DNA of 64,000 nt from Escherichia coli. GTDB taxonomy: Bacteria; Pseudomonadota; Gammaproteobacteria; Enterobacterales; Enterobacteriaceae. The DNA is taken from NCBI RefSeq assembly GCF_003790525.1, contig NZ_CP033635.1; one strand, written 5' to 3'. Shown in pieces: positions 10,192 through 10,393 of this stretch. How positions within the stretch are numbered: position 1 is the stretch's first letter; every line of letters starts with the position of its first letter. The notes beneath the pieces were generated by a model. The model searched no databases. It saw nothing but the letters and a program-made list of their open reading frames with translations, and had not been told where the DNA came from. A program made the translations under genes and the position numbers.

Positions 10192-10393
10192 GCAGGTCAA
10201 AGCTATATGAATCCGCGCTGAATGGCGGAGTGTTGCTCAAAATGTAAACGCATATTGACTATACTTACGCCATTGAGGTAAAAAACAGCGTTTCATTCGG
10301 TGAATGGATAAGGCACAATGCCGGCCACCGTTTTCTTTCTCTGGTTTCAGATGAAAGAAAACGGGCGAATCTGGTTAACAAAAGCGGTGCAAT

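Follow-up and report, generated by a model that had tools for sequence, protein, structure and literature searches.

The perfect 12-bp inverted repeat just upstream of sixA in this Escherichia coli genome is the core of an RNA stem–loop, here called P3. This stem–loop belongs to the 5′ untranslated leader of the sixA mRNA, and across the Enterobacteriaceae its shape is kept while its sequence is not. The hairpin is well conserved and has not been described before, and as a kind of element it is ordinary. We give about an even chance to the reading that P3 is a leader stem–loop serving as a protective cap for the RNA upstream of it, with the 3′ ends found just beyond it arising from downstream cleavage or termination followed by trimming. 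The main interest lies in the leader as a whole, which is strongly constrained and undescribed. Coordinates below refer to the window, the 64-kb stretch of DNA that was analysed, and all features given for the fadJ–sixA region lie on its + strand.

The inverted repeat is the core of a stable stem–loop

The two arms of the repeat, CCGTTTTCTTTC at 10328–10339 and GAAAGAAAACGG at 10353–10364, are 100% complementary and separated by a 13-nt spacer, and the coordinates given in the original prediction are exact. Its estimate that the repeat lies about 30 bp before sixA and about 135 bp past fadJ also agrees with the measured distances of 29 nt and 136 nt. Pairing continues into the spacer (UCUG/CAGA), so that the stem reaches 16 bp, with one bulge, and is closed by a GUUU loop; the P3 RNA folds at −22.3 kcal/mol, with z = −4.5 against dinucleotide shuffles. 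The repeat (10328–10364) forms the central part of P3, as judged by its sequence, its fold and compensatory changes within Escherichia. In the register common to the family, defined by covariation on a MAFFT alignment, P3 spans 10326–10367, with C-A-Y-Y-R paired to Y-R-R-U-G at its base; in E. coli this base is weaker, with an A-C mismatch and a register shifted by one base, and the stem is A/U-rich. The stem is followed by GCGAAUCUGGUU in E. coli and by the flank (A/C)UUCUGGUU in other genera. No T-run follows it and a terminator scan returned 0 sites, in accordance with the earlier remark that a repeat without a U-tract is not a canonical terminator.

The window contains 6 perfect inverted repeats that are 12 bp or longer and enclose a loop of 3–30 nt, compared with 0.08 ± 0.27 expected from 200 dinucleotide shuffles of the window. 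Since this count is far above that of the shuffles, the repeat is not a chance palindrome, a reading that its conservation also rules out. Elsewhere in the window, the perfect inverted repeat at 4514–4542 is the fadL terminator, and a 12-bp repeat with a 23-nt loop lies at the yfcH/yfcI end (46401–46447); each coincides with a Term-seq 3′ end of Adams et al. (PMC7815308).

In 5425 of 5426 complete E. coli genomes the hairpin locus occurs exactly once, also when searched by sensitive blastn. Since it is single-copy, it is not a repetitive element of the REP/BIME or ERIC type, which occur in many copies per genome. Known Rfam families (riboswitches, leaders and sRNAs) were rejected as well, as a cmscan of 9800–11500 against Rfam 15 with E values up to 10 gave three chance-level matches, none of which overlaps the hairpin.

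The hairpin lies within the leader of a monocistronic sixA transcript

In the open reading frame list, fadI occupies 6737–8047 and fadJ 8047–10191, while the coding sequence of sixA, encoding the phosphohistidine phosphatase, lies at 10394–10879. K-12 MG1655 is identical to the window across the hairpin, so K-12 transcript maps can be used here, and K-12 coordinates were transferred to the window through the identical sequence. SMRT-Cappable-seq lists a monocistronic sixA operon starting at K-12 2456916/2456915 on the reverse strand, which corresponds to 10290–10291, and a fadIJ operon that does not contain sixA (Supplementary Data 2, PMC6131387). The resulting sixA 5′ UTR is 103–104 nt long. 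The transcript starts 6–7 nt past the hexamer TAAAAA (10279–10284), which is separated by an 18-nt spacer from TTGACT (10255–10260). Because the published start lies at the right distance from these hexamers, TTGACT-N18-TAAAAA (10255–10284) is assigned as the sigma-70-type sixA promoter, on the basis of sequence, conservation and distance to the start. This promoter is nearly invariant across genera, its 18-nt spacer included (ATACTTACGCCATTGAGG; 10255–10289). Such conservation exceeds what a promoter needs.

Downstream of the start, the leader consists of three hairpins, some of them predicted, and a linker. P1 (10293–10309) is a short hairpin 3–5 nt from the 5′ end with a conserved stem and a variable loop, proposed from RNAalifold and pair counts; one of its pairs covaries (AU 43, GU 28, GC 7), and its pairing register is ambiguous. 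P2 (10312–10322) is a mini-hairpin, GGCA-CAA-UGCC, predicted by RNAalifold within the invariant block GGAUAAGGCACAAUGCC. All 4 of its pairs are invariant, so that covariation argues neither for nor against it. Beyond P3, column conservation marks out an invariant single-stranded linker and ribosome-binding region, GUUAACAAAAGCGGUGCAAU (10374–10393), which contains ACA at 10378–10380 and a Shine–Dalgarno-like GCGGUG at 10384–10389; in every species this Shine–Dalgarno region is predicted to be only moderately accessible (about 0.33 unpaired). Among public SixA gene calls, some (P0001, P0002, P0005, P0006, P0008, P0033 and P0108) run to 173–223 aa, compared with 161 aa. These long calls seem to begin upstream, in the untranslated leader, and are probably wrong start calls.

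Published Term-seq data place RNA 3′ ends at 10371 and 10373, 7 and 9 nt past the stem, the former (K-12 2456835) in M63 glucose minimal medium and the latter (K-12 2456833) in a stationary-phase culture in LB at OD 2.0 (Adams et al. 2021, Supplementary files 1 and 3, PMC7815308). Ends at the hairpin were found in two of the three growth conditions and were not detected in LB at OD 0.4; they are tabulated as ‘upstream ORF’ ends for sixA, and the authors leave them undiscussed (PMC7815308). The same study lists no Rho-termination region near sixA in LB at OD 0.4, the condition in which the hairpin ends were not detected (PMC7815308). Joining the transcript start from one study to the 3′ ends from the other, we infer a leader RNA of ∼82 nt (81–84 nt; 10290 to 10371/10373). 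The mapping of transcript ends that had been suggested as a check is provided by published K-12 data, with the start at 10290/10291 before the hairpin and the ends at 10371/10373 after it.

A further 3′ end was reported in LB at OD 0.4 at K-12 2456929, corresponding to 10277, with a Rho score of 1.02, a Rho region given as ‘No’ and an intrinsic terminator score of 6.7; this entry, at −117, carries no note of a regulatory element (PMC7815308). As it lies upstream of the sixA start, this end belongs to fadIJ or other upstream transcripts and probably marks where fadIJ or sigma-E transcripts stop. It falls at the end of an upstream hairpin (10216–10278), recognized by its fold and this published end, whose right arm in E. 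coli is the spacer of the sixA promoter. The placing of the repeat at the ‘fadJ–sixA boundary’ is therefore imprecise: the repeat does lie between the two genes, but within the sixA transcript it occupies +38 to +74, and the fadIJ transcripts seem to stop before it, near 10277. A main role of P3 as the fadIJ terminator is unlikely, since the fadIJ operon is listed without sixA and the separate end at 10277 precedes the sixA start.

A table of the MazF regulon gives the value 16 for sixA (PMC5001579). We take this value as the distance of a MazF cut from the AUG, 16 nt upstream of it, a position that agrees with the ACA at 10378–10380 in the linker. A cut at that ACA would part the leader from a nearly leaderless sixA message.

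A sigma-E-type promoter motif lies upstream

A sigma-E-type promoter motif, GCAACTG followed after 16 nt by TCAAA, overlaps the fadJ stop codon at 10174–10201 and was assigned by motif conservation. It reads GGAAACTG-N16-(G)TCAAA/TCTAA in most genera and is conserved in nearly all loci, and we take it to fit the sigma-E consensus. ChIP-seq in Salmonella found a sigma-E peak at sixA, where the paper reported no recognisable consensus (PMC4577112), and in E. coli sixA is induced together with the sigma-E regulon (PMC6850105). Both the Salmonella peak and the E. coli induction agree with the reading of this motif as a sigma-E-type promoter. Transcripts that start from it would carry a longer leader of ∼186 nt. 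An 8-bp perfect inverted repeat, TGACCTGC-AATAA-GCAGGTCA (10179–10199), covers the fadJ stop codon together with the −10 element of the sigma-E-type motif, and a shorter GACCT/AGGTC form of it recurs in other genera.

The structure of the hairpin is conserved across Enterobacteriaceae while its sequence is not

To define the conservation of the element, we compared 80 sixA loci, taking one genome per species, from Escherichia, Citrobacter, Salmonella, Enterobacter, Klebsiella, Raoultella, Kosakonia, Kluyvera, Trabulsiella and others. Four further loci were taken from the margin of the family (Atlantibacter, Buttiauxella, Siccibacter and one more), for a total of 84 loci from ∼30 genera. The scope of the comparison is the Enterobacteriaceae; a metagenome scan for sixA starts outside the family returned one unrelated sequence.

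The intergenic region contains nearly invariant blocks, ...TTGACTATACTTACGCCATTGAGGTAAAAAACAGCGTTTCATTC...GAATGGATAAGGCACAATGCC(C)GGCC and (A/C)TTCTGGTTAACAAAAGCGGTGCAATATG, and the stretch between them, which holds the repeat, is wholly different between genera and ranges from 42 to 67 nt. Across the alignment, the hairpin region has 0% invariant columns and a mean majority frequency of 0.56, compared with 48% and 0.92 for the 5′ flank of the leader, 77% (80 sequences) and 0.97 for its 3′ flank, and 6% and 0.69 for the third codon positions of sixA. The sequence of the hairpin is thus less conserved than third codon positions, while the leader flanks match first and second codon positions in their conservation.

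The fold, by comparison, is constant. Each of the 75 distinct homologous segments forms a single long hairpin closed by C-A-Y-Y-R...Y-R-R-U-G (75/75; mean z = −2.3), and the four loci from the edge of the family likewise fold into a single hairpin. Covariation was tested on a MAFFT alignment made without fitting to the structure. All 5 basal pairs of P3 change on both sides (CG/UA/UG, AU/GC and so on), with 93% of cells paired. For the whole tested structure, 98% of cells are paired, versus 23.5–44.3% when the partners are slid by 1–3 columns, and the observed pairing values were reached by none of 500 shuffles. The same holds at closer range: within Escherichia, the 12-bp repeat varies at up to five positions, and two pairs inside it change on both sides among the species of the genus, one between GC and CG and the other among UA, UG and CG. 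P2 and the linker, both invariant, show no covariation. A covariance model of the leader matched the sixA site only, in 167 kb of sequence searched. The original prediction had proposed conservation across Enterobacteriaceae as a check, and what is kept in all loci compared is the shape of the hairpin.

The repeat is conserved as an RNA structure and not as a DNA operator

An inverted repeat of this kind could be a DNA operator, at which a dimeric transcription factor would block transcription downstream of the sixA promoter, and the original prediction had named an operator and an RNA processing or stability element as its two options. What speaks for an operator is that the palindrome is perfect over 12 bp and occupies +38 to +74 of the transcript. 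However, no arm sequence is common between genera, the half-sites falling in the region with 0% invariant columns, the length ranges over 42–67 nt, and five positions vary even inside the genus Escherichia. The symmetry is also unequal between the strands: the fold of the + (sixA-sense) strand is the stabler one in 71 of the 75 sequences, by a mean difference of 5.7 kcal/mol, and pairing is upheld through G-U pairs on one strand only, with 182 such pairs on the + strand versus 33 on the other. This asymmetry in G-U pairs and energy, together with the variable length and the absence of a conserved half-site, indicates a sense-strand RNA structure and no DNA operator, and we regard the operator as hardly credible. 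The second option, an RNA processing or stability element, is the one that stands, with a conserved sense-strand structure and published Term-seq 3′ ends 7–9 nt past the hairpin.

Several other readings of the leader were tried and rejected. Two small open reading frames run through the hairpin, one of 42 aa at 10318–10446 and one of 16 codons from 10304; the upstream ATG is absent in several genera, and the frames are broken by a CCGG/CCCGG indel and by hairpin lengths that are not multiples of three. For an anti-Shine–Dalgarno switch or RNA thermometer, the left base of the hairpin, CACCG, resembles the complement of the Shine–Dalgarno sequence CGGUG, which the right base repeats, but the left arm pairs with the ribosome-binding region at −9.6 kcal/mol, compared with −9.9 kcal/mol for shuffled arms (median p 0.65). 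RNAalifold also proposed a long-range helix between the 5′ end and the Shine–Dalgarno region, CAGCGUUU:AAAGCGGUG. It lies mostly upstream of the transcript start, its probability is near 0 when the first 30 coding nt are included, and, being invariant, it allows no covariation test.

Regulation by RybB, a sigma-E-dependent sRNA, at the sixA ribosome-binding site was rejected in the same way. Nucleotides 1–13 of RybB can pair with CAAAAGCGGUGCA at 10379–10391, but this pairing of 10–11 bp at −13.3 kcal/mol is equalled by 7.5% of random 60-nt windows and is not significant. The best RybB site in the whole window, on either strand, is GAGGAGAAGCGGUGGC at the folC stop and dedD start (37345–37362), where pairing would extend over the entire 16-nt 5′ seed of RybB, with 12 Watson–Crick and 4 G-U pairs at −26.6 kcal/mol. 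To our knowledge, dedD is not a known RybB target.

Possible roles of the hairpin

How the 3′ ends arise, and what benefit the hairpin would bring, we infer as follows. P3 would act as RNA, a stable leader hairpin without a U-tract that halts 3′-to-5′ exonucleases. The sixA transcript would be cut in the invariant unpaired linker, by an RNase E-type activity or MazF around 10374–10380, or would be ended by Rho further downstream, and degradation would then run back to P3 and stop 7–9 nt past the stem, leaving a stable leader RNA of the length given above. On the intact mRNA, P3 may also keep a long untranslated stretch of the leader folded beside the ribosome-binding site. We chose this protective hairpin because a stable stem–loop, no U-tract and a precise 3′ end together make up the anatomy described by Dar and Sorek. 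It has weaknesses of its own: the distance of 7–9 nt also suits true termination, the published tables name no Rho region around sixA for LB at OD 0.4, and a stable decay fragment is not by itself a selected function. The near-invariant flanks, with 48% and 77% invariant columns, moreover hint at a more specific role that protection does not cover.

The main rival is factor-assisted attenuation at the hairpin, in which polymerase would stop at 10371–10373 through NusA, NusG, Rho or a pause and a growth-condition-dependent fraction would reach the coding sequence. In line with this, Adams et al. make the case that premature termination accounts for many of the 3′ ends seen in 5′ UTRs (PMC7815308). 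The ends 7–9 nt past the stem have the usual geometry of hairpin-dependent termination, and they are condition-dependent, being present in LB at OD 2.0 and in M63 and absent from LB at OD 0.4. G10363...U10372/G10373 presumably fits the consensus pause motif, and we counted it on the same side. However, intrinsic termination by E. coli RNA polymerase normally requires a U-tract, and of the 9 nt that come after the stem, GCGAAUCUG, only 2 are U; the terminator scan is empty, and no Rho region is listed here in LB at OD 0.4. We therefore consider an attenuator possible though rather unlikely. A lesser claim is that P3 only keeps the leader folded, for instance by barring Rho or RNase E or by holding the ribosome-binding site open, with the 3′ ends as incidental decay intermediates. 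Conservation of shape without sequence would suit this role, as would a hairpin that ends 29 nt short of the AUG and gives way to an unpaired, A-rich and invariant stretch, an arrangement that resembles the two-hairpin stabiliser of the ompA 5′ UTR. This idea overlaps with the protective hairpin, from which it differs only in which effect is selected, and the sequences lend it no direct support; with the Shine–Dalgarno region only moderately accessible (about 0.33 unpaired), we think it very unlikely to be the whole explanation.

Neither protection nor attenuation explains the near-invariance of the flanks, which leaves room for a specific leader or a trans-acting RNA. Here function would reside in the invariant flanks, GUUUCAUUC...GGAUAAGGCACAAUGCC and UUCUGGUUAACAAAAGCGGUG, with P3 as a variable peripheral stem in a cis-regulatory leader that responds to a protein or small molecule, or in a leader-derived small RNA that acts in trans. 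Flanks that are constrained while P3 varies freely are the pattern of riboswitches and protein-binding leaders, an RNA with a defined 3′ end exists in vivo, and some 5′ UTR fragments act as sRNA sponges (Adams et al., PMC7815308); without an Rfam match, such an element would be undescribed. Against this, nothing points to a ligand, protein or target, P2 and the linker are without covariation, the promoter and the ribosome-binding site explain part of the flank conservation, no U-rich 3′ tail is present for Hfq, and there is a single locus per genome. We judge this reading unlikely.

Implications for the control of SixA

SixA, a phosphohistidine phosphatase with NPr of the nitrogen PTS and Ndk as its targets, promotes survival of starvation, and its own regulation is essentially undescribed. 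The present analysis assembles its control region: a sigma-E-type promoter, a sigma-70-type promoter with a published start, a constrained 103-nt leader and the hairpin. If the hairpin or the leader tunes SixA output, envelope stress and growth phase would be linked to phosphohistidine signalling. If it does not, P3 is still a clean, well-conserved protective stem–loop in a 5′ UTR that does without a U-tract, and a candidate for an Rfam entry. A bolder proposal, to which we give a small but real chance, is that the sixA leader (10290–10393) is an undescribed regulatory RNA found throughout the Enterobacteriaceae, in which an invariant 5′ module (P1, GGAUAAGG and P2) and the invariant linker surround a varying P3. 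Such an RNA might serve in cis as a sensor or attenuator that sets SixA levels, or in trans as a ∼82-nt RNA under stationary-phase, starvation or sigma-E conditions.

Comparison with known systems

The ompA 5′ UTR stabiliser consists of two hairpins and a single-stranded A/U-rich segment before the ribosome-binding site. The predicted sixA leader is built alike, with P1 3–5 nt past the transcript start, P3 ending 29 nt before the AUG beside the ribosome-binding site, and an unpaired A-rich linker that is a plausible site for RNase E or Hfq; the two leaders have no sequence relation, and the likeness rests on predicted structures. With a canonical intrinsic terminator or attenuator, P3 shares a stable stem–loop and an RNA 3′ end 7–9 nt downstream in vivo. 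It departs from such a terminator in having no U-tract, in the A/U-rich stem of the E. coli version, and in a 3′ flank whose conservation has nothing to do with U content.

P3 also belongs with the 3′ ends in 5′ UTRs and the 5′-UTR-derived RNAs of Adams et al. 2021, whose own tables contain both sixA hairpin ends, although Rho and terminator scores are given there for LB at OD 0.4 only and not for the conditions with hairpin ends (PMC7815308). Its anatomy matches the stem–loops of Dar and Sorek 2018, who described E. coli 3′ ends that are made by Rho termination or processing and then trimmed by PNPase and RNase II back to a protective hairpin (PMC6061677): in both cases a stable stem–loop lacks a uridine-rich tail and is followed within a few nucleotides by a precise steady-state 3′ end. 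Those stem–loops stand at gene ends (PMC6061677), whereas P3 stands in a 5′ UTR, 29 nt before the start codon, so that the product it would protect is a leader fragment.
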